Shown: positions 4,177 through 60,207, numbered from the whole stretch's first letter. The stretch is 60,207 nt of DNA, filler included, from Dirinaria sp. TL-2023a (GCA_051941275.1; 3 parts of 3 records of this genome joined end to end with filler, not necessarily neighbours in it); one strand, 5' to 3'. The notes: a model not told the origin generated them from the letters alone. A program made the numbers and translations.

Positions 4177-5364
<1,188 letters not shown>

Positions 5365-8057: not shown

Positions 8058-8723
8058 CACCTTGCTTCACTTTAATGAGGTTCCAGAGTAGCACTGCCGA
8101 TAACTTAGCGGCACTGATTATAGCGAAGGCGTTAGGAATAGGAGTACGAAGGATCCTGGTTACAAACAGTACAGGGTAAATATGACGATTGGCATTTCAC
8201 GGATGGCGTGCTAAGAGGAGTATATCTTTCCGCACTTGGCCCTTTTCTTCCCCGTATATTTTGGATAGTATTGATAAATATATCTAAATCAATGTTCCTA
8301 CATATTGCCCGGCTTGATCATTTTGGCTTTTCAGAATCAGAGCTCTTGTGATTTCGAAGGCTTGATTCAATTCTCTGTAACCATCGGCCATTTATGATTA
8401 ATCAACACAATTTTTGCTGATGATGCTCTCTGAGTATAGTGAATCTCAGGTTGGATGAACGAGTCTATTGTGCTCTCCTCTCGTACTTTGCAACTTAACC
8501 AAGTCGCGCCCCATGCGTCAGGTAGGTAGGTACCTTATTCATACTTCTGATGTTGACGTAATTGACGCGGGTAACGATAAGATACATAATGGAACGTACC
8601 TTAGATGTTGGCGCTTCACAGACGTACCCAATCCCCATCCGACCTTATAATTCATGGTGCCAGCTTCCCAAATTGAGCAACTTCTTTGGATTAGACAACG
8701 TCTGCCGCGCGCTGATTGCCGTT

Positions 8724-20019: not shown

Positions 20020-20119
20020 NNNNNNNNNNNNNNNNNNNNNNNNNNNNNNNNNNNNNNNNNNNNTTAATTAATTAANNNNNNNNNNNNNNNNNNNNNNNNN
20101 NNNNNNNNNNNNNNNNNNN
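20020..20119. other. Artificial contig-joining linker (N44-TTAATTAATTAA-N44)
   Basis: Exactly 100 nt with a core giving stops in all six frames; identical to the linker at 40118-40217. Confidence 0.98.
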
Positions 20120-40117: not shown

Positions 40118-40217
40118 NNNNNNNNNNNNNNNNNNNNNNNNNNNNNNNNNNNNNNNNNNNNTTAATTAATTAANNNNNNNNNNNNNNNNNNNNNNNNNNN
40201 NNNNNNNNNNNNNNNNN
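40118..40217. other. Artificial contig-joining linker (N44-TTAATTAATTAA-N44)
   Basis: Identical 100-nt structure to the first linker. Confidence 0.98.
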
Positions 40218-40440
40218 ATTATGGCCATGTGCACAAGAAGAAAGTCCAACGCCAGTGGGTTGAAGTCTCTTCGAAATACTGTCGAGCGACTCAAATCTGA
40301 TATTGGCAGACTTGACGGATGCTTATCTGATGTTCAAGGTGAGTTCTTGACATTTACTTGAGAAATTAGCTTGACTGCTAACTTTCGTAGAAGAAATGGT
40401 GGACCGAATTTTCAAATTCGATAACAATGTGGATCATTGA
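40218..40440 (+). CDS. Short or 5'-truncated spliced coding fragment, coiled-coil-like
   Basis: ..LKSLRNTVERLKSDIGRLDGCLSDVQ, a canonical GTGAGT..GCTAAC..TAG intron (40339-40390), then in-frame EEMVDRIFKFDNNVDH*. Confidence 0.35.
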
Positions 40441-40498
40441 AAACGATAAAGAGACTCGATGTAGGACACGGGAGACGATTTCTCAGGAGGCCCAGACT

Positions 40499-41559
40499 TT
40501 ACCTCGAGGGTGCCAAATTTTTCAACGTCGATGCATCCACGAGGTAACCTTCGCCAATTTTGATTCCTTGAAACTGAACTTCAAAAAACCACTCTCGAAA
40601 AGCATTCTTCACGATCGCCTGATGCCAAACGCCTCCCAGTACAAGTGTCAGACGTTCCCAGGTAAGTCTCGATTTAGGGTGTCCAGTCCCATGCATGTGC
40701 AGATGAATGCTTCCTGAGTAATCAACAGCATTCACTATCGCTCCGGTTTGAGAACTGTCATGTGGCGCTGCTGCTGCTAGAGCTTCCAAAAAACTGCAAA
40801 ACATCTTGGTAATGGCGATCTCTTGGTCGTATATTTCATAATTGATTATCCACCTTTCGTCATCGGGATCGTGCATGTGCCCTGTTATTTTGTGTGAAAG
40901 GGGCTGCTCGTTGGTATCGTTGTTGCCATAGGTCAGCCAGCTGGTGGAACTTGTCATATTGGTGGTGTTGTCCGTAGATGTTGCGTCAGATCGGCCTCCT
41001 TGCTGCCACTTCATGAAGCCCAGTTGTCGATTGTTCAGAAACAGTCCAGCATAAAGCCTCGGAACTTTGTTGGGTAGTATGACCGGTTTTTGGGCGAGAG
41101 AAAAGCCCGCTACATATAAGGCGGCTATACAGTGTCGCAGCCGAAGTCCCCTTCTGGTCTCGGGCCATGGACTTATGACTATCTCTGCTGACAGTTGATG
41201 ACTGGCGAGTACAAGGCGCTTTTCCACGAGCGTTTCGTAGGGCGAATGTGCCAACGGTACCATCATCTCAAGTGCGTTGGTGAAAACTTGTTGAATATCC
41301 AGGGTTGGAGTCTGGTCGATCACAAGACGAGTTTCAAACCCGGGTATGATCGGCAAAGTTGAGACCTTATTGTGACTGAAGGGAACTTCTCAGTACAAAA
41401 AACAAACTTGATACCAGGGACTTGAGTGTTTTTTCACCTGGGCAGTAGAAGAATCGTGTTCTTTTTCATAATGTCATGCCGACGAACTGGGGTTGACGAA
41501 GAAAAGGTTTGTAACAAGTGATATATCAGAACTATAAAGACGCAGCTGAGTAATTTCAT
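40499..41559 (-). CDS. Secreted protein of unknown function (about 330 aa), 2 exons
   Basis: Signal-peptide-like MKLLSCVFIVLIYHLLQTFSSS. An intron at about 41377-41437 joins it in frame to the 285-aa ORF. The two halves both end in similar beta-strand motifs (LFLNNRQLGFM and VQFQGIKIGEGYL). Confidence 0.75.
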
Positions 41560-42149
41560 TGTGAAAGAAGAATATTCAATAGTTTGAGAAGATTTGCTAA
41601 TCCATATTGCAGAATCAGACGGGCGACGTGTCTTTACTATAAGCTCAGCGCATATCGCGAGCGCGAAGAACTCGAAATTTTGCAGTCCAAAAGCGGGAAG
41701 CACTCTTTGAACTAAGAATGAAACGAAGTACGTGCCGCTGATCTACAATCTTTGGTCTCGACAGACCCCTCTTGGTTCTCTGGCCACTATCTATCATGCC
41801 TTAGAACCAGTGTATTCACTGGTCTGGGTCTAAAACAGTGCGACATTCAAGCAGATACGTTGAAAGAAATGACGATCAACTGAATCACTTTGTAAGCGCC
41901 ATCATAAAATGGATAAACTGTTAAGTAGAAAAAACAGTGTAGTGGTCCAAGAAGTAGATGAAAGTAAAGCTGAGTTGGTAAGGTGACATGGCACACCCTT
42001 GTATGGGAACTAAGATAGTCTCGAGGTATCAGAACCCTGAATAGTCTGCCAACCTAGTCACTAAAATGCCATACCGCAACAAAAAGTGTCCAAATAACTG
42101 AAAATTCCCTGGCCCTGACATACACCTTGACCTCCGATACAGTACCCAC

Positions 42150-44350
42150 ACTTATTGTACCTTTTGTCTACGACACAGCTCCGCGATCTCGAAAACTCGA
42201 ATTATAAGCGATATTTCCAACACGCTTTCATTCCGTGAAAAAATATGAGACTTGGTAAGCTCCTCTGAGTGTTCCCAAGCTGTCACAACCCATCGGGTCA
42301 GTCGAAAAATCAATTGACTAACATGCTTGTCAACTATGATGTCTGCAAAGTGCTAAGATTATTATCAAGTCTATAAAAAGCTTTCGACATGAGGAAGGCC
42401 ATCAGAAATTCGAAATAGTTGTGCTGCGATAGACTTTATCAACCCTCGGCATGATTGTTATCGAATCTAATCTGTTTGCGAAAAGCAGCACTCTGGCAGT
42501 GATTAGCAATGATATAGGAAAGTGATCTAGCAAGTGACTTGAAGTCTTTCTCGCTCATTGAAGGCGTAGCAAAGAGTAATTATCTCACATCAAGCATTCC
42601 GCCAAGCATCTTGTTCAGTTCAATTCTATGCATCGTCAATCTGCACAGGGCATCTCATCACTGTCATAAAAGATTCCTATACGCCGTTGTGTAATGCGTT
42701 CTATAATACTCTTTGTACCGAGAAAATGCCATACGGCTAAGGAAGATATCCGTCTAAGGGGCTCCCTTCACCTTCGTCCGTGTTCAGCATGTCAGTGTTT
42801 CGATTCTCCGACTTGACTATCTTGGAGGCCGCCTTTCGCACTAAAACAACATTCGCGTCAGTACGGATGCATACCAGAATATCAAAAGATGGAGCAAGGT
42901 GTTGGAGAGATGAAGACTGAAGCTTAACGAGATGAGCTGTCAGTTGACTTAACCTCAAGCGCCTTCTGACTTTGTCGGTTTTCTCCCTCCTGCGCTGAGA
43001 ATTCGATGCGCGCCTGAAGCTTGGTTTTAATGGTATTCATATCTTCCTTGGGCCATTTTCTCCCCAAAGTATTTACGCCCCTTCCAGGTACTCGAGAGCA
43101 GGTATTCTGCTTGATCCGATCAGGTTGTTTCGAAACACTTGTGCTGCATAATCTAAGTTGGATTGATGCGTGGCCTCATTGATATGTATTCCGTCTTCTT
43201 CAGGTTCGATAGAATCGAAATATTGATTTTTCAAAGCGTCGATCACATACTTGATTGCATCGCGCTCAAACTCTGTGAGGGTCTCAGCCACTGATGTTTT
43301 CAGCAAAATAATGTCTGCTTCTAGAATGCTGTCTGGATCGTTTCAATTGCCATCTGCAATGAGCAGTCGAACATCATTATGCACTAGCTTGTTCGGTTCA
43401 CATAAAGTCGAACAAAGTGTCTAAGATGCGCATTGGATAAATGGAAGACACTGGCAGTCGAGCTTAGTGATCTCATGTCAATAGACTCGCGATCTTCATC
43501 TTTCTCTAACTTGAGGGATACGTTCATATCAGTTCATTAGACTAATTATGCGAGAACTACTTCTGGGTAAATGACACTCTTCAAACACTCGTTATCTGAT
43601 TCCTTCGCTTTTCGTTTGATGCCTGCCAGAAACCTGACTATGTAGTTGCGATAGATGGGGAGGAAGCGGAGTCGCTACGATTCTTGCGATTTCGTTCGAA
43701 GATCCAGAATCAAACTCCGATATATTTCGGTACTAGACGGTGGCGACTTGCGGAGAAGAATTTCGCTATGATATAGCTGCAGTGAGGTGCTGACGGCGAA
43801 AAATTTTGGCGTCGGTGGGATGAGTGATTGCACCAGCGAATTTTTCTCGGATGTTATTCAACATCGCTAATTGGACAACAGAATCAGTATCGCACAATCA
43901 AGCAGATAAAGGTATTTGAATGCTGTTGGGAATGAGCTGTTTTCAGAAAAAGGCTAGTGACACTGACATGTCGTTGGAACACTGAGATTACCCGCTTGGA
44001 AGTGCAATACAAGTAAATGTGGAGCATTCTTACAAGCAAACTCTCTCTCCATCTGCTGGTCTTGGCGTTATTTCCGACTTATTCAGATCTTTAAGTTCGC
44101 TAGTAAACTTATCCTCCAGCTACTAATCAGAGAAGGTACCTAGTTCTCGGAATTGCCCTCTTCCAGGTCAGTCTATACATCGGCTATGGTTGTCGCGTGC
44201 TCTTATTGATGATATTTCGCTTCCTCAATGATTCGAAACATCTGCTTTTGTGCTTCATGGAAGTCGGCGGATTGCGGATCACGTGGTGATTCATGCTGAA
44301 TAATGTAACCACTTTTTAGATGGTCTCAAGGATAGCAAGACTTCAAGATT
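42150..44350 (-). pseudogene. Degraded protein-coding relic of unknown family
   Basis: Protein-like minus-strand frames broken by many TAA/TAG stops, e.g. ADFHEAQKQMFRIIEEAKYHQ*EHATTIADV*TDLEEGNSEN* and LTEFERDAIKYVIDALKNQYF..LEYLEGA*. Boundaries are approximate. Confidence 0.5.
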
Positions 44351-45945
44351 GATTGAATTCGTCGGAAGGTATTGAATTTTGGCATGTACGATGGAGGAAT
44401 AGGAATTTGTGGCGCTTCAATCTCTCAAACGAAAGGTCATCGGCAGAAAACTCTCACAGAGATTCTGGGACAAAGAGAAATGGTTGACCTTTTGACCAGA
44501 TCGCTGTGTTGAAAAATGCGAGATACAGTTGTCGGAAGCAAGTCTACCTCACACTTAGTAGTAAGCTAGAGGAAAAAATGGGAAGGGGCAGTGCTTGTAG
44601 CCGAGGCAATTAAAGGATGACGTCATTCTTGCCTAATTATAGCGGGAACCCCTCGACCGCAGCTGAAAGCCTGAACAATCCACCCATACAGACATCTGAA
44701 TAGAGAATGCCTGCTTCAGCTCAAACTCTTTCGCGCGCCGATCTGACATTGCTCTAGTATGACCCGCCAAATTTGCTGCGGAGCTAATCTTGGAGCTCGG
44801 TATTCTGAGGAGCTTCTTGAGAAATTCGCTATGAGTCTTACAGGGAAAGACGGGAAACGTGAACGGGATGCTTCCTCGTCTTGCTGTCGATGTTGCAACA
44901 CAGTTAGGATCTTTGTGAGTGACAACGCGTGAGACATATCTTTCCGGACCTTAGAGCTACACGTGATTTAGGCTCGTCGTGAAACATGCACAGTAATCGT
45001 TCCTCAGGGTATGGACTTAAATCAAAGATGGCGATAAATGTCAATAGTGGAGCAGCGCAGAACCCTCGGCGGTAGGAGCCATGGTGTGGTTACGAAGCTT
45101 TGTGGGTGTGAGACGAAATGCTTTCAAACACAGCTTTTCGCTGCATTGGAGGTGGCAATTCAAGATGCGCGTAATCGCTCATACGGAAAAATCTCAAATG
45201 TCGAATGACGACTTCTGCTGGCGGATGGAAAGGCGGAAGTGTAGCCTCTAGAGAAAGAGATAGCTTGTGAAGTCTTGGATCGCGCAGACCTTCGAGTGAG
45301 AGGGCCTAAATCAAGGCGGCGGCAATGTGAGACTCGAAGGACAAGACTAGGCGAATCAGCCAACGAACGACTACTGTGTGGATGTTGCAATGGATATGGA
45401 AATAAACACAGAATTGGCTCTGTTTCCCGACCAGCTACCGATATTTTCCCATTGATCCTGTCGATTAATGGCGCTGTTAGGTTTTAGGATTTGACCACGG
45501 GCTGACTCATCTTCAGAGGTCTGGTATGATTTATGGTGCTCGTACTAGGCGTTTTAACATTCTCAGCGATTGGGCTCGACCGTATTTGTGTCTAGGCGAT
45601 CCTTCAATATGGTATTCGATCATCGGATCAACTCAACCGTCATCAAATTTGTTGAGGAGAGTATGCTGGATCGGGGTTACCGTCGGTCATAGAACTTTAC
45701 CTTGACCCGTGAGTCTTTTCTTCTTTCGTAGCCCAAGCCATCATGTAGTTAGCATTCATCATTCCTACAATTACCGCACATGATAAGCTTCTATCCGTGC
45801 ATTTCCTAACATCAACACTCATCATGTGATCCCCGCGCATGTCCGGTTGAAAATCAAATAAAGGCCCATTCGATAATATTCTCGGATTTTCTCCAGTAAT
45901 TTTCGTCCGCACAGATTTGATCTACGAAGACTCACTGATCACACA

Positions 45946-47136
45946 ATGGCCCGACGCCACGTCGGCAAAAAGTGTTATGATAATGCCAACCCGGCGAGTA
46001 GCGGAAAGTTCTCAGCGAAAAAGAAATGGACATTTGAAAAGAGTGCAGAACAAGACTTTTCACTCCGCCTAGGGAATCGTTTGAACAACTCGAACATGAA
46101 AACTGCCAGAAACAATGTCGGACAAATACCTTCTCGCCAGGTTTTTGAAGCGGCCGCGCCAATCTGCTCTCCGCCTGCATCGACAGGATTGGGATTCCTT
46201 GACCTGCCTGCAGAGATCCGCAATATGATCTATCGTAGCGTACTTCTGTTTAATGGTATTCAGCCTCTTATTCAGAACATCAGAACTCGCCCGAGAGAAT
46301 CTCATCGAGACTTCCATAGCTGCATGAAAATTTGCATGCTTTCACCTAGCGCGCTTGAAACCAAGTACAATGAATTCAATGCCACAGCTCACGGAGACTG
46401 TTTAGCAGTCCAGAAAGCATTTGCCTTAACATTCACTTGCAAACAAATCCGCAAGGAGGCACGCGAGATATTCTGGTCGGAGAATACATTCATCTTCGAT
46501 TCTTTGTCTCAGCGCAACGAATTTCTGCGCCATCTTGATCAGAAACGGAAAGATCTAATCATGAAGATTGGTGTGCGTCTTACGTCATGGGAGTATGCTT
46601 ATCACAACTTTCCTATAAGCTGTGAAGAGCTGCTCCATGAAGTGCTCCTTCCTGACTGTGCCTTGGGTCGCTTTGGTGATTATCCTGTATTATCACCCAA
46701 GGCTTATATATTGCGGGATTTGAAGGAGAAGTCCGCTATCGAGGCTGGTGGTACGGAGGAAATGTTTACCAGCAGCTCCGTACAAGTGAATCGCTGGCCT
46801 CGTACTCCTTATAGAAGAGACATATCATTACAACATAGGAATACTCACTCTCCAACCCGCGGGCCTGTTGGAAGTATCAAGCAGGGCAGTATCTTTGACA
46901 TGAGCGCTACGGGACCTTTGGCCGACTACAAAACCGACAGGAGAACCATGCTCGACGTTCTTGGCGACTGCATTCGATACGATAGAAAAGCAGACACCAG
47001 CGGGTGGAAATTCGCGATCGAGCGCCGCAAAAGAGATAGAGAAGACGTTCCCTGGCCGGGGTCTAACTGTCTGTACGATGTCAGCAAGCCGTACATGCTG
47101 TTATATCTTTGGACCGAAAGAGATCCGACAGTCTAA
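45946..47136 (+). CDS. Fungal F-box-like domain protein (LPxEIRxxIY family)
   Basis: GFLDLPAEIRNMIYRSVL followed by LTFTCKQIRKEAREIFWSENTFIF. Intact single exon of 396 aa. Confidence 0.75.
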   Translation: MARRHVGKKCYDNANPASSGKFSAKKKWTFEKSAEQDFSLRLGNRLNNSNMKTARNNVGQIPSRQVFEAAAPICSPPASTGLGFLDLPAEIRNMIYRSVLLFNGIQPLIQNIRTRPRESHRDFHSCMKICMLSPSALETKYNEFNATAHGDCLAVQKAFALTFTCKQIRKEAREIFWSENTFIFDSLSQRNEFLRHLDQKRKDLIMKIGVRLTSWEYAYHNFPISCEELLHEVLLPDCALGRFGDYPVLSPKAYILRDLKEKSAIEAGGTEEMFTSSSVQVNRWPRTPYRRDISLQHRNTHSPTRGPVGSIKQGSIFDMSATGPLADYKTDRRTMLDVLGDCIRYDRKADTSGWKFAIERRKRDREDVPWPGSNCLYDVSKPYMLLYLWTERDPTV

Positions 47137-47433
47137 TCAATAGCTGAGAATCCTTCCATGCGTATGATCGAATCATGTAGGGTTTTGGTGCAACGAAAAT
47201 ATATCTTTGTAGGTCGTTTGTTGTGCTTATTTAGCTTACTTGATAAGGGATCGATGAGTGAGAGAGTCTGAGTACCGCTCTTTCCATCGAACAAGGTAAG
47301 TAATCTTGATCAAGTTTACAAGATGCTCGACTTTCAGATTTTGACCACACACAGTATTTCTAAGTACCAACAGTCGATTGAACCTCTGTCTCTTGTATTC
47401 AGCTTTGATCTGGGCCTCTGCCGCTCAACAGCT

Positions 47434-48265
47434 TCAGATTTTTCTGAGAAGATGGCAACCGACGCTGAATGCACCAGGTAACGCCGAAAAGCCTCCGCCG
47501 AAGATCATGCTGAACCCGCCAAACATCTGAGCGTATAAGTAGCGACCTTCATCCCTTTCTATTAAAGTACTGGTCTCAGAGTGCCACAAAGACAACCAAG
47601 GCTCATTATTCTGGAAATCATTCCCATTTGTACGCCTAACCTCGGTGTATCCTTCTGAGCATTTGCCAATGCGGGAGGAAACATGCTTTGAATGCCAGCC
47701 CCAAAGAAGCCATAGACAACAGCAAAAGCCCGTCTACCTTTTAAGTATATCACGGAGGCCCAAGCATAATGAAGTATGCCGGAGGCAGCGACAGTAAGAA
47801 TAAAGGTGTTAAGAGGACCAAGAAAATGATCTGCGATCCATGTTGGTGCCACTCGTCCTGGCACTTTCATCGCGTTGATCACGAGTAACATATCAAACGA
47901 TGTTGAAGATCAAACGTGGATTGCATTTTGCGCGAACGAAGTGATCCCACTCTTGATGAGGGCCAAGGGACACTTGAATGATTGAGAGGCTCACATAAAG
48001 TTACTAAAGTACAGACTTACTAAAGCTAGTAGCACTCCTAACTCAGAAAAGCTGTACTAAGGATCTCTAAAGACTGCTAATTCAATCAAGAGACCAGTTC
48101 TCCGTAGAGAATTACAACTCTTCGCCAAGACCAAGACCATTGCAGTATTTGCCAGGACGATAAACCCCATCACTCTGAGTGTCCAGGCAAAGCCTGCAGG
48201 AGGAAAGAGCTGCCGTGCAGTTATTGTAAATACAACTCCGCCGGTTGCAGTGTCAGCCACGGCTG
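47434..48265 (-). pseudogene. MFS monocarboxylate-transporter-type (MCT/MCH-like) pseudogene, C-terminal portion only
   Basis: ATGGVVF..QLFPPAGFAWTLRVMGFI, GRVAPTWIADHFLGPLNT, YGFFGAGIQSMFP and RYLYAQMFGG. In-frame stops (FRDP*, IHV*), frameshifts and a lost intron acceptor; the N-terminal helices are missing. Confidence 0.85.
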
Positions 48266-49683
48266 TATGGTAATAGATAATGCTGCTGCTTGAACGTCAT
48301 GTGCAAGCGTCAAGTACACTTTTGAACCATGATAGAACTGGTTGGGTCAGGAAGTGTTTACCTGTGTGGAAGGACGGGACATACCTAGAGACCACCTGAG
48401 TTGCTGTCTCCAACGTTTATTACCACGGTCTTGAGCTTGAATGGCGTGGGCTCATCTTCTCGATTGGCGCCTGCGGACTTGTGGAACAACGATGCCGAAG
48501 AAGTACCGATAAGCGCGAGGATTAGAGGAAAGTAACAAGTGAGCTGCATAGCTCCGAATCATAGCAACGATGGGAATTGTAGATGTAGCTATTTATGGGG
48601 CTAGTTCAAGGGTTCGGGCTGCAGATGAGGTGCTGGAGTTCTAAGGGGGCATATTCAATTTTTGACTGCTGAGAATTGATGATGGGATTGGATGGACGGT
48701 AAGTAGTATTGGGAAAGAAGAAGGGGAAAAAAAGAGGAGCGGGAAAGAAGTACTCCATGTGAGGTGGGATTGCTCCTTCTGCAGGCGTCCAAGGGACCTG
48801 GGCAAAGTCGGGATACCGTCTGATAGTTGGCAAGAAGGCTCGCTCCATGGTGGGCATGTTGCCGTTTGAGGGAAAGAACAAAGCTACATCTTCAGCATCC
48901 GCAATGCTTGCTAGAATTCAATCAAAGTCAAGTACTTTACAACCTAACCCTCGGTTCGATGCGGCTCTATCGGCGTTCGCACATGAAATACAAACCATGT
49001 CAACATACCTCTTCCTACAAAAGAACTAAGCTTTATGAACATCCTTGCTCTATTGCTACCCGCGCCTGATAATGTTTGGGACACTTCCCAAAATGAGCGA
49101 TGCTTCAAAGGCAAGTGGTCGGCTCTTCCTTTGATGAGGGCATTGCTCTTGCACTATAACACTACAACTCAACCAGACCTCTGGCATCTGCATGATGAGC
49201 GGCTCCAAAATCCTCCTCGCATCATGTTCGCGATGAGACGACATGACTGCTTGATGCTGACGACGCCAAGACGGACTCAACATCTCGACGGGTTCTGGCG
49301 CAGGGTCCACAAGTACAAGGAGAACTTGAACTAGGGTTTCTAGCGTGCATTGATTTAAAGTAACTAAATTCTACGCGATCCCGATCTCGTCGTCTAATTA
49401 AACATAGAAATACAAAGCGTTTTGTTGGCCCCGACTCTGCGCTTGTCGGCCTTCTCCCTCACCAGACGAGATCGCCGACATAGTTCTGCAGTGTCTCGGG
49501 TCGATGGTCCCTTTCATCTTCTCGTCAGTATTGTGCATGTTCAGGTGCATGAGCCCTCAGTGTTGACGGAAACAACATGAAAAATCTCCCCCCTATGATC
49601 CGTCACGGACGATTCGAAATGAACATATATTGTGCATACCGACTGGCTAAGGAAATATTAGAAATTCTTCATCAAAGACGGAC

Positions 49684-51589
49684 TTACTTTCGAGATCGCT
49701 TCTTGGACCCGACCGTAGCAATCTTCTCCTTTCTAGCCCGTCCCTCCTTGCTGCCAACGGCTACAGCAGCTCTTCTACCCCAACCCTCGTCAATCCACTT
49801 AATTGGCCCTTTAGGCAAATCTTTATGAGGGGACTGCCAGTTCAGCATGCCCGATATCACTGGGTCAAGCATCGGCTGCATCCCATGGTAGGACTCAAAT
49901 TCACCACCGAACCTCTGCGGTATGTCGGCCATCTCGACATGCTGTTGCAACGTTGGCAACACTTCTTCTGGAGACAGGATGAAGAGTTTTTCAAAGGTGC
50001 CCGGGTCGACCCATTTCTTTATCCAGCCCCAGATGGTAGGGAAGTATGAGGGTGCACCTATGATCTGCGAGATTCCATGTCAGCGCTTACGAGGGATGTT
50101 AGGATGTGCAGGATCCTTACAAAAACACGGGACAGGATCTCCGGATAATTGGTCGCAAACATTTTGGCTAGGTCTTGTATCCAGCCTCGAAGACTCCAAA
50201 CTTGTTTGAGCGAAATACCAGAAATATCGACAATACATAAGGTTTTAGTAACCGCGCGCTCCTGGTTAGGTCGTCCCGGGACACTGGTACATAAGGGCAT
50301 GATGAACCTAGTCAGAAACTCGTAATAGGCAAAGGCCCGAACAGATGCCATTGGAACTGAATCTGGTATTTTCAGCTCAGACTTCAAAGCTTTCATGTCG
50401 CCGGAAGTTTTTGTGTGAGCCGCCACTATTTTCGAGTCAAGCTTTCCAAATTCGAACAAGCAAATAGGCTGGCCAGATTTGTCTCGTCGTCCACTCCAAA
50501 TAGGATACTACAAAGACGGCCAGTAAGCATCGAGCCTAGGAAGGGAGCTCTGTGGCCAGAAGCATTACCAAGTCCTTTGTCTCTTGGAACTCCGCGATCC
50601 CAAATTGCTCATAGAAGGTACCCAGATTCCTAGCCTCACGCGCATCCCAAGCTTCTTTGAACTGCTTATGAGCAGCAGAGACGTCGTGTTTCCGAGCATC
50701 AAAGAATCTTCTGTGCGGGCGTCAGACTTGAGACGGACGAGATACTTGTCATGTTAACAACCATGGAATCTTACCGAAGGGTGGCGTCATCATTGATACC
50801 GTCGGACACATCGTGCTCACCAATACCAGCAGGCCGCCGAAGAAGCCCTTCTCTCGAACAAATACTTTTCAACAAGCCAAAGTCCGCATCTTCTGCCTCA
50901 GATTGCGGATGAGAAAGTTTATTCTCTTCCTCGGTTGTTCTGCTCAAGGAAGTCGACGGAGTGGGAGCCGAGTCCTCCGTGTCTGTAGAAGTTGAAGTCT
51001 TAGCACGGGATACATTGCCGGCCGGCTTCGAAGCTGTTGGCGTGAGGTGACCGTGATTGGCCATGGAAGTTGAAGAACCGGGCACCATGGCTTCTCTGTC
51101 ACCCAAATTTGATTCTGGCCATGGATGTGGATATTGCTGATGAGGGGTTGGGGACATATGTGACCACTCTTCCCCAATCTTGGCCAAAGCAACGAGTAAA
51201 GGTACCAGCTCCTCTCCCAGCCGATATAGTTTTATTAGAATTGGGATGAGTTCGTCTGCCTTCTCTGCTGAAGATGTCTGTGTGGGTTGTCTCTGCTCTC
51301 CCATTAGCGTACTCTTGCTTTGGTGAGCTGATGAATCTCTTGCTGATGATTCTTTAGGCTCAGTCGAAGGAGCAGATGCTTCTGATCGTCTATGTTTGGA
51401 CTCTTTCAGCGTCGACTTCGATCCTGATGTTTCGCCCAGCTTCTCTTCAGAATGGAAAGGGGTCGTTGCTGCATCGAACCATTCCTCCTTCTTTGTGCCA
51501 AAATAATCCTTCCCAATCATGACTTTCTCGAACCGTTGTTCATCATTTGTGCGAGAAAAACGTTTCAGGTAGCGGCCTAGAAAGTCCAT
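49684..51589 (-). CDS. Sec14/CRAL-TRIO lipid-binding protein with a long N-terminal extension; 4 exons
   Basis: DDATLR|RFFDARKHDVSAAHKQF (CRAL_TRIO_N), YPIWSGRRDKSGQPICLF, CIVDISGISLKQ, ATNYPEILSRVF|IIGAPSYFPTIWGWIKKWVDPGT and IPQRFGGE. All three introns are canonical and keep frame; no stops. Confidence 0.92.
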
Positions 51590-52966
51590 TTGTTGGCTAC
51601 CATAAGAGATGGCAAGCCGTACAATTGGAAAGCAATGTCAATGTTTGGAAGTCTTTGCAAGGCAACGCAGGATTTACCAAACCACCGCGAAAGAAACAGA
51701 TCACAAGAAAGAATCGGATCACGGCACGGAGGACAGACGCTCTTCGAAAGGCTTACAACAGTTTTCACATGATTTACACATGTGATGTGGCCTTAACAAT
51801 CAGAATTTCGACCGTCATTTCAAGCCGGAGACCCCGCGTCCGTTCTCGCCGGCTGACAAAATGCATTGTGAGGCATTCCATGTGACTGGATAAGTCGATA
51901 ATGCAGGATGTTCACTCACCACCTGAAGCTGTCCTGCTCTATGAAGCTTTAATCGACGTCGATCGTTATGCGCCTCTTGCTGATCTCGGCTTTTCCGAAA
52001 GCATCTCGAAAGTGTCATAGTCGCAGAGGCTCCGCTTTGGACGAAGATCGAGATAGTCACGATGCACCAGAACCAAAAGAAGAGGTCTGCGAGGTGATTG
52101 GGGTGAGGCATCGGCTAAGCACTTGGCGGCGGCCAGTCGAAGTAATCCGCGCATGGATTAGAAGCATTGAATGTAACGTTGCCGACAATACTGGAGAAAC
52201 AGGGATTGCATCTTTTTGCACTTCGTCGAGCATACGGTTCAGGATGAGGGGGCTCTCAGTGATGTTCGCCGCATTCATAACATGGGGTTGCTCGCATTGG
52301 TCAATGGCAGACATGGCTCACCTTTGTCGGTGTTCCCGGGGAACCGGGCTGGCCGAGGCCGGCATACTCTGAGAGATATTCTGGCCCGTCCTACGGTGGT
52401 ACTCGAATCCCTGTCACCCCCACTCAACCCTGTGGTAAATCGACTCTAGTGTAGTGGAAAGTACCAAGCATCACGGGTGATCTGGGTTTTCCATTCGTTG
52501 ATGGTTCTACGGCGAACTTGGAAGGGGGCGACCCGGACATCCCGGCTCAAGCTTTGCGAGGAGAATTAGATGTATCGAGAAAAAATCCATGCGTCTGAGA
52601 TGTCACACTGCTTTACACCTTGGGCGATATTGCTTCTGCTCCGGCAGAGGTAAGTGTCTTACCCAACGACAAGCGAACCATATGCGGTGTTACGGCCCAA
52701 AAAGCATTACGCTTAGCTATTATCTAGCGCTACAGGTCACTGCTCGATCAGATTTACGATCACAATGTGGAGATTCTGTGCCAGCTTGGTTGAATGGAGA
52801 AGCCACGGAATGCAATTTCGTCACTGTGCAAAATCGTATATATTTTCTTCTGCTGGTTGCCCATCATCCAAATTGGAGAAGTCCTTCACCTGAGCTATTT
52901 GCCTGATTGAAAGTTATTTTGGGAACAGTGCCTCATCCTTGATTTTGCTTAAGTCATTGTCGAAGT

Positions 52967-54370
52967 ATGTCTGATCTGATCATGCTTGGTGTCGATTCAG
53001 AGACGTCCGCTCAGGGCGTTCTGTCCCAAAGGGCTCACGAAGTAGCCGGGGCGGACTTGCCTGCGGCTGTTGAAAAGCCTTTACCGGAATCGCCTCAGCA
53101 GAGTCCTCCGGTCACTCCAGAAGCTCTGACCCATGCAGACTCCAACGATGATATTCAGCCGAGCTCGCAAACATCTGTTACGGACCTCAATAACGAAGAG
53201 TTAGAAAGCAGCCAAAAGGCCTCGAAAACACCAGACGACCATGTTCAGGGATCCGAACCGCCCGCATCTGGAAACCAAGCCAGCAGTGAAAGGCACAAAG
53301 AGATCACGGAGAAATATTCTAGCCTTTGGACGGACAAAGAGGAACAAGTGCATTTTTCTCCAAGCATCGAGAATTGTTGTACTGAATAACGCATTAGATT
53401 ATCACTAAGCCATTCGACTACGTCAAAGCCCTTCCGGGCAAGCATTTCCGTGCTCAAATTCTTCTGGCATTTAATGTCTGGCTTCAGGTAGATAAGGAAT
53501 CGCTCGGCGTCATCGATAAAGCAATCGAAATGCTTCACAATGCGTCCCTTCTGTATTTTCACCCAGCTCTCAGGATTTTAAAAGACATTGAAGGCTGATG
53601 CTCGCAGTATCGACGATATCCAGGATAGTTCTGACCTCCGGCGCGGATCACCAGCAGCCCATCGCATTTTTGGAACCGCGCAGAGCATCAACGCGGCCAA
53701 CTATATGTGTTTTATGGCTCAGCAGGAGCTGCTCAAACTGCAAAAACCAGAGGTGTTGCAGATATATCTTGAAGAAATCCTCAATGCCCACCGCGGCCAA
53801 GGTATAGAACTCTTCTGGCGGGATACTTTGACTGTCCCTACCGAAGAGGAATACCTTCTCATGGTCTCTAATAAGACCGGCGGATTGTTCCGGCTTGCAG
53901 CGAGGTTGATGCAAGCTGTCAGCCCTACGACGTACAACATATTGCCCGTAGCTGAGTTGGTAGGCCTGATGTTCCAGGTCCGTGATGACCATCGGAGCTT
54001 GAGCTGTGAGAAGGTACGTGACTTGTTGCAAAACGTTCAATTGTAAAGCTTACAATTGACGAATCAGATGAGCTCCGCCAAAGGCTTTTGCGAGGATCTG
54101 ACGGAGGGAAAGTTCTCATTCCCCATCATCCACTCCATTCGCACCAGCACCTCGAGCAACAATGAGGTTCTCAATATACTCAAGCTTCGTACAACCAACA
54201 GCGATCTCAAAGCTCATGCGGTGCAACATATGCATGCCGAGACCAAGAGCTTTGAGTATACCAATAACCGGCTGGGGGATTTTCATAAAGCGGCTCGGGA
54301 CCTGTTGACAGGCTTTGAGCTACGCAACGAGCAGCTGGGAGCTTTAGTCAAAATGTTGAGCTTGGCATAA
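52967..54370 (+). CDS. Geranylgeranyl diphosphate synthase (fungal type III-like trans-IDS); 4 exons
   Basis: KPFDYVKALPGKHFR, LHNASLL|IDDIQDSSDLRRGSPAAH (FARM), HRGQGIELFWRD, NKTGGLFRL, FQVRDDHRSL (variant SARM) and FCEDLTEGKFSFPIIH. Confidence 0.93.
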
Positions 54371-55218
54371 GCTCGGTTCCCATTTTATCTGTTGATAGTC
54401 AAATGGCATATTCAGTGCATCATTGGATCATAGACACAAATTCTCCACAGATTGCGATCCTTGAACCATCAGCGGGGTTGAAATGTCCGTACGATCTCGA
54501 TGGTGACCACGGACCTCTGAGAAAAGAAAAATTGAAAAAAACAGACAGGGAGGAGTTACAGTGCATGATGTGCCTCAGTAGCTAGGATTATAGGCGATCT
54601 CGCAGGATGCGGCACATGTCGACTTTGGGATAGCATGTGCGCCTTAATGTGCAAATCGCCAAGACAATGGCTGCATATGAAAGAATCTCCCGCACATTCC
54701 CTGTCTTGTAAATCATCAGATTTGGAAACACGAGCATATCGAATTCATCGAACATAGCCGGAGATGGCCGAAGGCAGATCCTTGGGAATGGAGACTAGAA
54801 GAAAGCGTATTCAACGGAGGCTGGGGATCGGATAGAATTACCTCGTACGGTGAGGTGCTGATCTGATTTTGACTCGCCCTTCGTTGGACGATTAGAGGCC
54901 TTTCAGCAGAGTCTCCACTTGACCAGCTGCGCTGCAGGCTGCAGTCCTGTTACACCTCATCCTGGCGATGCAGAAGTCTAGGCTTTTAGGCTCTTGTTCA
55001 TATAGTGGAAAGCGCTTGCAAGGTTCGACGCCACCTGTGGAACCTGTGGATGTTGCGAAAGTCCGAGCTACTCCCTTCAGTCGGCCCTTCTGTCTACCCC
55101 AATATGGACTTGGCCCACAGTAGCACGGGAGTTTGTCTCAGAGTTGCAAATGATTAAGTTTCTATCCTCTGCAAGGTGAGCCATCCCGTGCATAGAGCAT
55201 TGAGCTAGTGCTGCTATC

Positions 55219-55825
55219 CTAAGCTGATCGCTGCTTGTTCCGAGTCAAGGTAGAGCTGACCAAAGCCAGACCATCACCAGTCACACTCATCTGGGTAGTA
55301 ACAATCGCCATGCTCCCGGCAACAATTCCCTTGCCACCACATCTGTCGTGCTCTTTGAAATAGGTGCTGGATACGTAATTATACAGCTGCAAGACTTTCG
55401 CGAATGGCAGGAACGCCAAGTTGGATGCCGTGTCTTTCATGGTACTCGTGATCTTGCCCACGTCCTCCGTGATGATGGGAAAGCTTCCTTCGGCCTTGTT
55501 AAGTCCGCCTTCTGCCAAGGAATCGAGTCTGATAGCGTAGGGTTGGACATATTCGTATGGTCCCGATGCGTACGGCACAGCTGGGGCGACGATGGACTCA
55601 TAACCTTGGTTGGCTAGTGAGACGAGCCTGCCTCCTAAGGGATTGGATTTGAATGTATCGATTCCGGTGGAGATAGCCGGTAGGGAGGTCAAATGCTGGA
55701 AGTTGCATCAATGACTTCTCTATCCGAGAAATGTTGCGAAGGGGACATACGTTCAGGGATTTGGAGGAGGTAACGTCTCGATCGTCGGTTGGGCCAGTCA
55801 TGGTCGATTTGCTTGCTTGAGGCAT
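55219..55825 (-). CDS. Perilipin-like lipid-droplet protein (CAP20/MPL1 family); intron 55696-55750
   Basis: SKSLN|HLTSLPAISTGIDTFKSNPLG, PYEYVQPYAIRLDSLAEGGLNKAEGSFPII and YVSSTYFKEHDRCGGKGIVA resemble the fungal CAP20/MPL1 pattern as I recall it (HLxSYPxVxDxIxxFKSNPYG..PYxYVxPYxxKADSLxxxxLxKxDxxFP). About 183 aa. Confidence 0.85.
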
Positions 55826-56797
55826 ATGCAATGGATGAATCGGTCTATGCCTGCGAGGGACAAGGATAGGTCTCGGGGTTCTCGTGTCTTGATAGAACGT
55901 CTGCTGGTCGCAACAATGGATGCGCTGTTAGAGCGAGGAGTGGTCTGGCGATTTAGTGCTAAAAGCAAAAGGGGAGCACCCTTTATCAGCCATTTTCCTT
56001 GATTCCCATCCGAAGACAGTCTTCACGGGCCGGTGGACGTAATTAGGCGCCCAAGCGAGAACCATCAAGCCCGTCCACGTAGATCACACAGCATACATCA
56101 TGTACGATATAGTGTAAAGAGGCTTATGCGGAGTGATCCTACGCTATGACGCTGTATGATCATGTCTACAGTTTATGATCGGCAAAGCCGAAGCGAGCGT
56201 GGAGCGCCCAACTTGCATATCCCAACTTTAACTGGACGACGTAGCATCAAGCTACGCCGTTACAAGCGTACTCCACAATTGGAGAAACATCCGTGATCTA
56301 GATCTCCATAATTGTGCGCTGTGAGGTCATGTGTGGTCCTCTGCACTAGTGCTGACCTGCGTAAAAACGTCCTTAGGCCAACTTCCTTCCTGTTCTGGCC
56401 TTTTTCACGGGGATTCCGTCTCATCTCGCAGCAAATGGCCATATTCTCTTGCGTATACTTTGTCTAAAGGCGGCACATCGATGATGGGTTCGAGTGACTC
56501 TCGAGCCGTCCCGATGAGTTACAGCTGTCTCCACAAGCCCGGAAATCTATGCCATTTGTAGTGTGTGGTAATAGCATCACGAAAATGATCAATCCCACAC
56601 GGCGGCATGGTGTGCTCTGCGGATACAGATTCCAGAAACGGTCGTCCTTCTCAGGATTCTAAAAGCTACAAGAGTCAATACTGTTCCGCCAAGGTCAATC
56701 TCAGTCATGCTCTTCTTCTCAGATCTCATTCGAATCCTTTCACTCCTGTTCTGGGTCGCCATTCTCTGTCAAAAGCTATCTGAAGTCATAAGCAAAA

Positions 56798-58230
56798 ATG
56801 GCTCCCAGCTTCAATCAAACCATCGTTGATGAGTCGACCTTCGACGGCGTTCACACGATTATCATTCATCTGAGTCTTCCCCGACCACAAGGCATCGCGG
56901 CATCTCAGACATCCATCCATGAATCCAATGATGTCCTTAAACCACATCAAGGGGTATCCGTTGCTGGAACCTGCAGGGACGAACCAGTGACGGAGTTTGG
57001 CAACGAGGATCCAACCATCGAGGTTGATGGGGAGAAACTAGTCACCAATCGACACACAAATGGCTATCCCCAGAAGGCCCTCTACACTCCTGATGATCAG
57101 CCCCCTCCCTCGCGCTTCCAGCCTCAATGTCACCCTCGAGCTGATGAAGTCTGCGCCGAGCTTGACGCCTTCTTTGCCACTTACTGGCCTTGGGAGAATG
57201 AGAAGGCTCGACAGAAATTTGTTGCCGCAGACACCAATCGATGGGCCTGCTGGTCATTTCCCTTGGTGAGAGATGACCGTATAGTCAACGCGGTTAAGGT
57301 GGATACATTGTTGTTCCTCCTTGACGGTAAGCTGTCATGAATCCCAGCCTCTTTCCTTGAATCGAGTTGTGATTAACCTGTAATTTCAGACATTGCCGAG
57401 AGTATGTCGTTCGAGGAGGGGAAACTTTTCTACCAGCGCCTCATCCTACTTGCCCAAGGCAAATTCCTACCCGACCGAGAGAATCCTTATGAGTGGATTA
57501 CTTACGACACGTTTGCGAGTATGCGCGCCGATGACGAGGCTTTGACCGCGATCGTGCTGCGAGAAGCAATGTTGTGTGTCAACGCGCAGGTAGATGAAGC
57601 CCGCAACCACGTTGTCGGCATGGGCTCTCTGCTCAAGCAAAGGTACAAGGAGGGTGGTATAAAGTACTTGTTCCCTTTCAATCAACACATACCTCTCCTT
57701 TTCTTCGTTTCATGGCGGAAGAACTATTCAGAGATTCTCAGATCGTCAAGCACCATCAAATAAAATACTGACACACTATTCACAGATTTGTTGCAGCCGT
57801 TTTGCGCTATGGTATGAACCTCCACATCAGTGAAGCCAACCTCGAGAGCCTCAAGGACATTGAGGAATCCTACTCTCGTCTTGGGATCGTTGTCAACGAT
57901 ATTCACTCCTTCGAGAAGGAAGTACGTGCATACGCAAAGCACAAGTCGGAAGGTGCGAAAGTCTTGAACATGGTCCAGATGCAGGCTCTCGAAACCGGAG
58001 TAAGTTACGCATGCGCTAAACGAGTCCTTTGGGTGCTGTGCCGCGAATGGGAGTTGCAGCATATCGATTTGATCGGGCAAAGGGAGACGCAGTTGAATTT
58101 GGAGGGGCAAGAGGGGAAAGGTGAGAAGAACGAGGATTTGAGAATCTATATGAAGGCTCTGGAGTATACTATCAGTGGGAACGAGAAGTGGAGCGAGTAT
58201 ACAAAAAGGTATTACGAAGACCTTGATTAG
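56798..58230 (+). CDS. Class I terpene cyclase, aristolochene-synthase family; 3 exons (introns about 57327-57389 and 57664-57785)
   Basis: PPPSRFQPQCHP, W..EKARQKFVAA, LFLLD|DIAE (DDxxE), MSFEEG, NDIHSFEKE (NSE/DTE), AKRVLWVLCREWE and LEYTISGNEKWSEYTKRY (WxxxxxRY); colinear with A. terreus aristolochene synthase as recalled. Confidence 0.95.
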
Positions 58231-58775
58231 TGACACGATGACCGGATGGTGTCTTTTTTGTGTAGGCTGCAGACTTGATAGATGCTAGAACGAGCTTATA
58301 GTCTTTACCGTCAACCCATGTGGACAAATGGAAGAAAAGTTCTCTCTGTTTTCGAACCTATTCCAAGTCTTTGTAACGTGGTTGTCGAGTGTTATCAAGG
58401 AGGATCAACTCAGCGACTATGTATCGCTATTTTTAGCGCGGGTATTATGGATCTTCCATGTCTTAGCAGAATGTGTTGCGAAGAACATTCTCGATTCAAT
58501 GTAGCGTCGATCATAGAAATCAATCTCGATCCACAATGGATATTTTTACAGTGCTCTATCACTGCGGATAAAAAACACCCGCTGCAGATAAAACTTAAAA
58601 CAGGAATTATTTTGCGATAAGATTTCGCGTATATCATATCACGCTACGCGGGAAATCTTCATGCGCTGCGAGTTTCTATTATAGACGCTCGCTAAGCACA
58701 TATTTCTTTTTGATTTTCGCTACGCTCACACACCCTCTTTCTGATGTCACACATTCTTCCCCCCATCCTTTCTAT

Positions 58776-59238
58776 TGTCACACTCTGTATAATCGACTAG
58801 TCAAGGGTTATAATGCTTACTAGTTTACCTGGGTCAAAAGATCACAGTAATTATTGCAACTGCATTTTCATTGGAATAATATTACTATTATCACCTAACA
58901 TACTATAATTTGACACACGTGCGAAGGATCTCTCTCTCTCAGACATCGTATGACAATTATCTCTTTTTTAGAAATCACGTTCACGAGACTAGTGGAAAGT
59001 TTTGTCTCAGAGTCATTGACGATTTTTCTAACTAATAATGTATAAAACAAATTCTTAAAAATACATCTTGTGAGCTGTAATGACTCAAACATCTCGAGAT
59101 GTCGAACTCTGTCAAATATTTAATTTTAATCAGATAGATTTCTTATGATAGAAATCTCGACAGCGTCAAAAGATTAACTAAATCAAATCAGCGATTTGAC
59201 TTTTATCTTACTACTTAGTGATTTTTAAAGTCGTAACA
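58776..59238. mobile_element. AT-rich, RIP-like degraded repeat; probable LTR relic
   Basis: Starts TGTCACA and ends CGTAACA (imperfect terminal inverted repeat); about 460 bp, AT/TpA-rich, no credible ORF. Confidence 0.45.
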
Positions 59239-59717
59239 TGTCGCGACCCTAAGCTGTGACATACCTTTATGCGGTAGCCTGAGGAACAGGGACGCACCAT
59301 GATCAAGGAGGCGCATCTTCTTGACGCTTGGACTTGATGATCACGTGATCAGTTCAAGTAGTCCAAGAGGACCTGATGCTTAGACATCTTGATCAGTCCA
59401 AGTAGTCCAAGGGGACCTGATGCTTGAACATCTTGATCAGTCCAAGTAGTTCAAGGGGACCTGGTGCTTGGACATCTTGAACACTTAGCGCAGGAGGACT
59501 ACTATATAGATCTCCAACACGACGCCCTTCTGGCATCGTGTTCAATCTCAGTTAACTTGTCTACTACTGTTACAAGTACTAAGTACCTACCTTGTGTGAT
59601 ACTTGCCCTATCACGTTGACACCCGTTGCTCCTGGACTGGACCTCTCCAACAGACCAAACCCTAGCATCTCTTATTAGATACCTGGAAACCTAGGTTGAT
59701 AGTAGAAGACGCAACAG
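59239..59717 (+). mobile_element. Retrotransposon LTR, probably solo
   Basis: TGTCGCG...CGCAACA termini (6/7 inverted match), 479 bp, with an internal tandem array followed by a TATA-like CTATATAGA at about 59502. No matching TSD seen. Confidence 0.65.
59346..59477. repeat. Three tandem copies of a 44-bp unit inside the LTR
   Basis: Units start at 59346, 59390 and 59434; consensus TGATCAGTCCAAGTAGTCCAAGGGGACCTGATGCTTGGACATCT. Confidence 0.92.
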
Positions 59718-60207
59718 TTATCTAAAGGGGTAAAAAATAAAATCTACATTCGCTGCACACGAGAACACAAGTCGGACTTCAATGTTCATGCATTTTGTTA
59801 GGACCGGTGCAGAGCAAGTCAATGCAGGTATAGTTAACTAAGATATTATCACTAGGGAAAGAAGAAGGAAAGCTAGATACAATAGGAGGCCCCAGGTTTA
59901 TATGTGCGGGTGTCGGGTAAACACCCCGATCGGGTTAGCGCATAACCCCTGAGAACCATGGGAGGTGTTGCCCCAGGTAGTATACCAGGTGCATGCTCGT
60001 AACACGTCTCTCATCTTTTTCATTTTTCTTCACTCTTTTACACAGCGCAATGCTGCATCGCGTTTCACTCGATACTTCTTTATAAGATAGAAAACAGCAT
60101 CGTCGTCGTTGAGAACTCAATGTTTCAATTGATCGACATTGTTTATGATTTCGAGAGTGAGAATCTGATCTGCTCTCGAAGAAGTCTCTATCGAATCATC
60201 TGACAAC

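Follow-up and report, generated by a model that had tools for sequence, protein, structure and literature searches.

A candidate four-gene terpene cassette of lichen-forming fungi in which a GGPP synthase and a cyclase of the aristolochene-synthase lineage are interleaved with Sec14-like and Cap20/perilipin-like genes

A dedicated geranylgeranyl diphosphate (GGPP) synthase (GGPPS) encoded beside a class I terpene cyclase is a known pattern in fungi, and di- and sesterterpene clusters with their own GGPPS include those of sordarin (SdnA/SdnC) and the indole-diterpenes (atmG type). Aristolochene synthase is a sesquiterpene synthase that uses farnesyl diphosphate (FPP). Cap20 and BbPlin1 are described as lipid-droplet proteins of fungi (PMC9502314, PMC9225014), and a survey of 724 lichen terpene clusters published in 2024 reports that only two are widely shared, both based on squalene/phytoene synthases (PMC11457338). 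Here we analyze a locus of Dirinaria sp. TL-2023a (GCA_051941275.1) contained in a stretch of 60,207 nt, referred to below as the window. Its block at 49684-58230 carries a Sec14/CRAL-TRIO-like gene (minus strand), a GGPPS gene (plus), a Cap20/perilipin-like gene (minus) and a gene for a class I terpene cyclase of the aristolochene-synthase lineage (plus). The reading that we tentatively favour, rating it somewhat short of an even chance, is that these genes form a cassette inherited as a unit in lichen-forming fungi (Lecanoromycetes), which would make a terpene and handle it in the lipid phase.

The preliminary description of this locus had claimed four intact spliced genes arranged as two divergent pairs. 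The gene models bear out both points: all four are open, spliced and without internal stop codons, and the Sec14-like gene diverges from the GGPPS gene as the perilipin-like gene does from the cyclase gene. Pfam domains were matched in seven of 13 open reading frame (ORF) pieces, with CRAL_TRIO in two, polyprenyl_synt in three, Terpene_syn_C_2 in one and, below its cut-off, Perilipin in one.

To see whether the block is conserved, an alignment of five lichen cyclases was used to scan metagenome contigs; a pattern was matched by 135 stretches, and five of them, representing four loci, encoded a relative. Loci L001 and L002 contained all four genes in the same order and orientation as the window, and since they are 96% identical to each other over the block they were counted as one lineage. 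In L001 the Sec14-like gene (2915-4874, minus) showed 62-71% identity to the window in the domain exons (exons 2-4) and 43% at the N-terminus, the GGPPS gene (6364-7490, plus) 45-69%, the perilipin-like gene (8429-8893, minus) 62-65% and the cyclase gene (10001-11312, plus) 47-56%. No stop codon stood opposite aligned residues in L001 or L002, except where one GGPPS alignment runs into an intron. A tblastx comparison of the window contig with both loci confined the homology to 49685-58221, apart from one 25-codon match at 49459-49533 (L002). The 4.3-kb contig of L003 carried the perilipin-like gene and the cyclase. Since the L001-L003 cyclases are at most 60% identical over long segments to any named cyclase (at most 64% on the short C-terminal piece of L003), these loci represent an independent lineage.

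The linkage was also found in closer and in other relatives. One contig of run X1 (11,775 nt) was collinear with window positions 48249-58330 at about 90% identity, introns included, and diverged past both ends. In Gallowayella weberi three consecutive locus tags on one 15,742-bp contig correspond to the cyclase (Q9223_005076), the perilipin-like protein P0142 (Q9223_005077) and the GGPPS (Q9223_005078), and in Haloplaca sp. the perilipin-like gene (P0297, Q9183_002687) adjoins a GGPPS gene (Q9183_002688). Altogether, linkage extends to all four genes in two deep lineages, to three of them in a third, and to two in another member of the third. The only Heterodermia GGPPS among the 120 matches listed (Q9195_005760) is not near the perilipin-like gene of that fungus (Q9195_005343). 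The grouping recurs in other lineages and is thus more than chance, and the expectation under which the preliminary description would have been abandoned, that these genes are never neighbours elsewhere, is contradicted by L001/L002, the X1 relative and G. weberi. A core synthase with co-localised genes conserved across species, which is one mark of a fungal terpene cluster, is therefore present.

The cyclase gene (56798-58230, plus; introns 57327-57389 and 57664-57785) is predicted to encode 415 amino acids (aa), and its model aligned end to end and without gaps with an independent 415-aa gene prediction of another assembly, P0001, at 90.8% identity. P0001 was dropped as transcript evidence, since the gene spans 1,433 nt of genomic DNA and the 1,450-nt contig of P0001 can therefore be genomic. 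The C-terminal exon matched Terpene_syn_C_2 at 33.8 bits (cut-off 23.7), and proteins P0001-P0006 carry this domain (PF19086). The metal-binding motifs DDIAE and NDIHSFEKE are intact and are kept in the homologues; an N-terminal extension of about 100 aa has a conserved block (...GVHTIIIHL...) at 56798-56880. When the exons were compared with the PDB, all seven matches of the N-terminal exon at E <= 1 (E 1.4e-20) and all seven of the middle exon at E <= 0.01 (E 1e-14) were aristolochene synthases, and the C-terminal exon matched aristolochene synthase at E 2e-24, the next family being variediene synthase at 2e-5.

The predicted active site departs from this lineage in a clade-specific manner. 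Relative to the Aspergillus terreus aristolochene synthase, the window cyclase has Ser for Tyr61, Met for Phe145 and Cys for Phe147, and keeps Phe81 and Trp302. In all nine cyclases of the cassette clade (window, P0001-P0005 and L001-L003; cassette neighbours were checked for five of them, namely the window, P0005 and L001-L003) the three positions are S/A/T, M/I/L/A and C, respectively. Both relatives examined outside the clade, L004 and P0006 (an aristolochene synthase by its NCBI name), retain Y, F and F. The aristolochene-synthase pocket contour (Y61, F81, F147, W302) is changed in its first and third residues, and because of the Y61-to-S and F147-to-C replacements, with F145 to M, the window cyclase is better filed as a member of the lineage than as an aristolochene synthase. 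In the Penicillium roqueforti enzyme (PrAS) the corresponding contour would be Y92, F112, F178 and W334, whose roles are given in a review (PMC10992375), and Y92 and F178 presumably match A. terreus Y61 and F147, given a constant offset of 31; a literature search on the A. terreus pocket residue numbers found no paper. In PrAS, Y92 is reported to control FPP folding and F178 to promote cyclisation (PMC10992375). Replacement of pocket aromatics by small residues in a bacterial monoterpene synthase is reported to have extended its substrates from C10 to C15 and C20 (PMC12958101), and a fungal sesquiterpene-type synthase that also makes a diterpene has been described (PMC11495317). The changes in the cassette clade fit a widened pocket, possibly for a larger substrate such as GGPP; they equally fit an FPP-derived product other than aristolochene.

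Locus L004 (10001-16374) differs in its neighbours as well as in its pocket. Its cyclase, 37-39% identical, is followed by cytochrome P450, ATP-binding cassette (ABC) transporter and 2-oxoglutarate-Fe(II) (2OG-Fe(II)) oxygenase ORFs, and none of the three partner genes was found within 10 kb upstream or 5 kb downstream of it. Judged by these genes, L004 is a classical sesquiterpene cluster and a natural contrast to the cassette. The preliminary description had noted the lack of a tailoring enzyme, regulator or exporter on the window contig. None lies inside the conserved block; for the contig as a whole the statement is true but covers little DNA, because the cassette ends 2 kb before the contig does. 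In L002 an epoxide-hydrolase ORF (EHN and alpha/beta hydrolase domains; 11414-12334, plus) begins about 100 bases past the cyclase stop codon and is also present in L001, with a MARVEL-domain ORF ahead of the Sec14-like gene and a DUF6593 ORF beyond the epoxide hydrolase. No homologue of this hydrolase was detected by tblastx in the last 2 kb of the window, and it is a possible lineage-specific tailoring step in L001/L002. The unoxidised product that had been proposed thus agrees with the absence of an oxidase from the conserved block, but in L001/L002 the product may be modified.

The type-III GGPPS gene (52967-54370, plus; introns 53348-53397, 53553-53607 and 54014-54067) is predicted to encode 414 aa and is identical to database protein P0015 (NCBI: hypothetical protein) except for a start five codons earlier. 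Three exons matched polyprenyl_synt (PF00348), the core exon at 128.8 bits, and in the PDB the core exon came closest to fungal bifunctional synthases (prenyltransferase domains, E 1e-46), followed by human GGPPS (2e-38) and yeast Bts1 (9e-37). In its first aspartate-rich motif the protein has DDIQD, like most fungal relatives. The second (53986-54003), DDYxNL in relatives, reads DDHRSL in the window and DDHQNL in L002, with both aspartates kept and a Tyr-to-His change in common; every other labelled GGPPS row in which the pattern of this motif matched has DDY.

The phylogeny of the GGPPS was assessed in a quick maximum-likelihood tree (LG+G4, SH-aLRT support). Its 91 rows, mainly fungal GGPPS with few exceptions, comprised 89 of the 120 homologues listed, the window model, which replaced P0015, and L002, as a row assembled from alignment pieces; 30 listed rows, mostly Xylariaceae near-duplicates and unnamed proteins, were left out. 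All lichen GGPPS, including that of the window, fell in one clade (support 100) that splits into two. Clade A (26 rows, support 98) unites the window and L002 with the cyclase-adjoining Gallowayella gene, 15 Teloschistaceae proteins and those of Cladonia, Usnea and Alectoria. Clade B (9 rows, support 92) holds the second genes of Gallowayella and Calogaya, as well as the Heterodermia gene mentioned above, and has an R-to-Q change ahead of the second aspartate-rich motif where clade A keeps the common form. The two clades, with second genes of two genera in clade B, indicate that GGPPS was duplicated in lichens. The window and L002 proteins are on long branches and their pairing may be long-branch attraction. 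The possibility raised earlier that the cassette GGPPS is an extra paralogue is consistent with the two paralogous clades, either of which could be the housekeeping copy.

The Cap20/Perilipin_2-like gene (55219-55801, minus; exons 55801-55751 and 55695-55219, separated by a 55-nt intron at 55696-55750) is predicted to encode 175 aa, and the model agrees residue for residue with P0007 (NCBI: hypothetical protein). P0007 falls below the Pfam cut-offs for both Perilipin_2 (17.4 bits, cut-off 30.1) and Perilipin (16.2 bits, cut-off 33). Among 11 aligned relatives nine matched Perilipin and four matched Perilipin_2, all below the cut-offs, and the exon gave no match in the PDB. In the Atlas, the closest cluster that carries a name is 'Pathogenesis associated protein Cap20' (score 0.93). 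When the 11 relatives were made into a profile and compared with 1.84 billion representatives, 156 proteins were retrieved at E <= 1e-3; in the best 150 of these Perilipin_2 was found in 86 and Perilipin in 17 (E <= 1e-3), and two matches, from Cenococcum and Tothia, belong to Cap20-named clusters. In a BLASTP comparison P0007 and the Cenococcum protein (P0301) were 36% identical over 173 aa (E 1e-35). From this profile and pairwise evidence, homology of the window protein to the fungal Cap20/perilipin family is accepted. A hydrophobic-moment scan of this protein and of three N-terminal extensions detected nothing above shuffles. The cassette copies grouped in one clade (11 rows, support 99) of a quick 83-row tree, followed outwards by an unnamed representative, a Gallowayella/Haloplaca pair and then Ramalina and Brigantiaea proteins.

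The Sec14/CRAL-TRIO-like gene (49684-51589, minus) consists of four exons (51589-50775, 50710-50569, 50507-50121 and 50064-49684) and is predicted to encode 574 aa. Its introns, of 64, 61 and 56 nt, start with GTAAGA, GTAATG and GTAAGG, respectively, and all end in AG. In the protein the CRAL-TRIO domain is preceded by about 270 aa of N-terminal extension and followed by a C-terminal tail of about 70 aa. Two exons matched CRAL_TRIO at 38.9 and 33.8 bits (cut-off 22.6) and the Atlas neighbours are CRAL_TRIO clusters. The best solved matches in the PDB, Sec14 and YKL091C, were weak (E 1e-3 to 1e-2 per exon), and the alignments to Sec14 are too weak for the phosphatidylinositol/phosphatidylcholine signature residues to be read. 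By its domain matches the protein is a divergent CRAL-TRIO protein. Two blocks of the N-terminal extension, at 51589-51450 (FLGRYL...EKV.IGKDY.GT..EEWFD) and 51255-51160 (E.IP.L..L..LGEELVPLLV.LAK.GEEWS), are kept in L002, and these short conserved blocks in a generally ill-conserved N-terminal extension, like that of the cyclase, may be docking or targeting motifs.

Signs of purifying selection were seen in the cassette genes. Between L001 and L002 the ratios of nonsynonymous to synonymous substitution rates (dN/dS), all below 1, were 0.16 for the GGPPS, 0.29 for the cyclase, 0.40 for the perilipin-like gene and, in the Sec14-like gene, 0.24 for exon 3, 0.67 for exon 4 and 0.72 for the N-terminus (dS was zero in one short exon); these values are based on 2-37 differences per gene piece, which detracts from them as an argument for a functional unit. 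The reading frames kept open over the much larger distance between the window and L002 are the stronger sign of constraint.

The spacers between the divergent genes, at 51590-52966 (Sec14-like/GGPPS) and 55802-56797 (perilipin-like/cyclase), are presumed bidirectional promoters, and the GGPPS and perilipin-like genes converge on a spacer at 54371-55218. Common k-mers were not beyond shuffle expectation when the window promoters were compared with those of L002. A 22-nt element at 54749-54770, within the convergent spacer, occurs once in the window and again in the perilipin-like/cyclase spacer of L001-L003 (9287-9308 in L002); it is identical at 21 of 22 positions between the lineages, and none would be expected in shuffles. 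An upstream ORF of 40 codons (MLFFSDLIRILSLLFWVAILCQKL...; 56707-56829, plus) overlaps the cyclase start codon out of frame. Its peptide is kept in L001-L003, as detected by tblastx over window positions 56695-56787 (about 9913-10003 in L002), and the DNA changes are mostly synonymous. This pattern suggests that the ORF controls translation of the cyclase or encodes a small hydrophobic peptide.

Two N44-TTAATTAATTAA-N44 linkers, at 20020-20119 and 40118-40217, divide the window into three pieces of about 20 kb, and the cassette sits in the third piece (40218-60207; 19,990 bases), which ends 2 kb past the cyclase. The first two pieces contain ALAD, aminotransferase, kinase, glutaminase A, SHMT, centrosomin-like, F-box, PDCD2, RPA34, CLP1/NOL9 and folliculin-like genes, all of the housekeeping kind. 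The pieces are separate contigs, and these genes are not neighbours of the cassette. Upstream of the block there is only a DUF7730/F-box-like ORF (45877-47133) and a weak MFS_1 fragment (47565-47909, E 0.014), which is the sole basis for the flanking pseudogenes of the preliminary description. The long terminal repeat (LTR) relics reported there were not confirmed: no reverse transcriptase or integrase match was found among 71 flank and spacer ORFs, Pfam detected no transposon domain in the window flanks, and the only long repeat is a 44-nt unit present three times in tandem at 59346-59477, near the contig end, with copies 89-100% identical. The summed contig depth of run X1 was very high at 59703-60207, the same end stretch, which is probably repeat DNA. 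No Rfam family was matched on the cassette contig.

In the reading that we favour, the GGPPS would make the C20 prenyl diphosphate and the cyclase, having lost three bulky pocket aromatics, would cyclise GGPP, or possibly FPP, to a non-oxygenated, water-insoluble terpene. This product would partition into the lipid phase, where it would be handled by the Cap20/perilipin-like protein as a droplet coat and by the Sec14/CRAL-TRIO protein as a lipid-transfer protein, and the two divergent promoters would allow paired expression. We regard this as the most economical reading; in essence it is the proposal of the preliminary description, with no commitment as to the chemistry. The substrate, product, droplet location, Sec14 ligand and co-expression of the cassette are what we infer from sequence comparison. 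A GGPPS that feeds the cyclase had already been put forward in the preliminary description. The nearest characterised relatives of the cyclase are FPP-using aristolochene synthases, not GGPP enzymes, and by descent alone a GGPPS neighbour would not be expected, so that the proposed flow does not follow from ancestry; it is argued from the conserved linkage and the clade-specific loss of the three aromatics. The conserved unit, the duplication of GGPPS in lichens and the remodelling of the pocket in this clade together tip the balance towards a functional link between GGPPS and cyclase.

The chief alternative, which we consider rather unlikely, is that the block is an inherited neighbourhood with no joint pathway, in which the cyclase would use FPP and the other three genes would be isoprenoid and lipid housekeeping genes that were never separated. 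Several observations weigh against our reading and on this side. The ancestry of the cyclase is one, and another is that no fungus can do without the families of the other three genes. The distribution of the GGPPS clade exceeds that of the cyclase: clade-A genes are widespread in lichens and occur also in Cladonia, Usnea and Alectoria, genera with no listed homologue of the cyclase, so the cassette GGPPS may be a general one. This absence refers to a search that gave six matches from 283 candidates and that depends on shared words, and the duplication of GGPPS in lichens would have left one copy free to specialise. The perilipin-like gene may likewise be an ordinary Cap20 orthologue, as its tree roughly follows the expected relationships of lichens across Lecanoromycetidae; the dedicated extra copy envisaged earlier is not what this tree calls for, since plain orthology suffices. 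The block contains no tailoring gene, regulator or transporter, and k-mers or motifs common to the two divergent promoters were no commoner than in shuffles. The layout is not invariant, the Haloplaca GGPPS model being fused with a downstream Dcp2/NUDIX gene. The window flanks are gene-poor and differ even from those of the 90%-identical X1 relative, so that non-homologous flanks are a weak control for background synteny. A mere neighbourhood accounts less well for the retention of the order and orientation of four genes at 43-71% protein identity next to unrelated sequence, for three of the four genes being consecutive in Gallowayella, and for pocket changes that the clade cyclases share and that are absent from the relative in the P450/ABC-transporter cluster.

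A narrower alternative is a two-gene diterpene cluster in which only the GGPPS and the cyclase cooperate, the Sec14-like and Cap20-like genes being bystanders. The pocket changes fit it, as does the occurrence of dedicated GGPPS genes beside class I cyclases in other fungi; among the matches of the GGPPS search were proteins with the names of cluster GGPPS genes (atmG, spyE, esdpD and SonG), at 59-65% identity over the core exon. That a different gene, Dcp2, adjoins the GGPPS in Haloplaca also fits. We nevertheless judge it improbable, since the Cap20-like gene lies between the GGPPS and the cyclase in every lineage that has all three and shares the promoter region of the cyclase, and the Sec14-like gene shares that of the GGPPS in two deep lineages. 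Very unlikely, finally, is a droplet-storage module for prenyl lipids or carotenoids formed by the GGPPS, Cap20-like and Sec14-like genes, to which the cyclase was added later: the linkage met with most widely is that of GGPPS with the Cap20-like gene (window, L001/L002, Gallowayella and Haloplaca) and lichen fungi are reported to have a conserved phytoene desaturase, opsin and carotenoid-oxygenase cluster that needs GGPP (PMC11457338), but carotenoid genes are absent from the cassette and from its immediate surroundings in the window, L001 and L002, and of the four lineages with readable neighbours three have the cyclase.

Full-text literature searches found no description of this gene combination, in agreement with the preliminary description, whose author knew of no such cluster. 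The main text of the lichen survey cited above contains none of the terms geranylgeranyl, aristolochene, perilipin, CRAL or Sec14, and its supplements could list such a family (PMC11457338). The terpene chemistry and genetics of lichens are almost unexplored, and a cassette that has stayed whole in deeply separated lichen lineages suggests that its product serves a conserved function in the symbiosis. If functional, a synthase paired with lipid-transfer and droplet-coat genes would represent a different logic for hydrophobic metabolites from that of oxidases and pumps, and would be of practical interest for terpene storage in engineered yeasts. For the opening of a sesquiterpene scaffold to longer substrates, the loss of three pocket aromatics throughout the clade might serve as a natural experiment. 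A bolder version, to which we give a low probability, is a self-contained make-carry-store module, in which a diterpene synthase that arose recently from the aristolochene-synthase lineage would be served by a GGPPS of its own, a dedicated CRAL-TRIO ferry and a Cap20-type droplet coat, with translation of the cyclase tuned by the upstream ORF. Were this true, lipid-droplet sequestration would for the first time be part of a biosynthetic cluster itself, replacing tailoring and efflux.

Compared with the described systems, the cassette is a terpene cluster by its core, and what appears new is the interleaving of lipid-handling genes, the absence of tailoring from the conserved block and the tie of an opened sesquiterpene scaffold to a GGPPS. 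With the dedicated-GGPPS clusters of fungi it shares a stand-alone GGPPS beside a class I cyclase. It differs from them in that the block has no P450, transferase, regulator or exporter, in that two lipid-handling genes are interleaved, and in the origin of its cyclase from a sesquiterpene-synthase lineage. The cyclase resembles the aristolochene synthases of A. terreus (4kux/2e4o) and P. roqueforti (1dgp) in its class I fold family and its DDxxE and NDxxSxxxE motifs, with 41 of 78 aligned N-terminal residues identical by match-line count; on the other hand, it has the S, M, C pocket and is extended N-terminally by about 100 aa, conserved at their start. Its neighbours are GGPPS, Cap20-like and Sec14-like genes instead of the P450s and transporters of aristolochene-synthase clusters, the classical neighbours being kept by the L004 relative. 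The perilipin-like protein is similar to the Perilipin_2 proteins Cap20, MPL1 and BbPlin1 in its size of about 175 aa, in the reach of its profile to Cap20 names and in its identity to the Cenococcum protein (36%), whereas it falls under both Pfam cut-offs and its gene sits in a terpene cassette. Finally, the Sec14-like protein shares the CRAL_TRIO domain with yeast Sec14, Sfh1/YKL091C and human SEC14L2, but is very divergent, extended at both ends and encoded by a gene transcribed divergently from a GGPPS gene.

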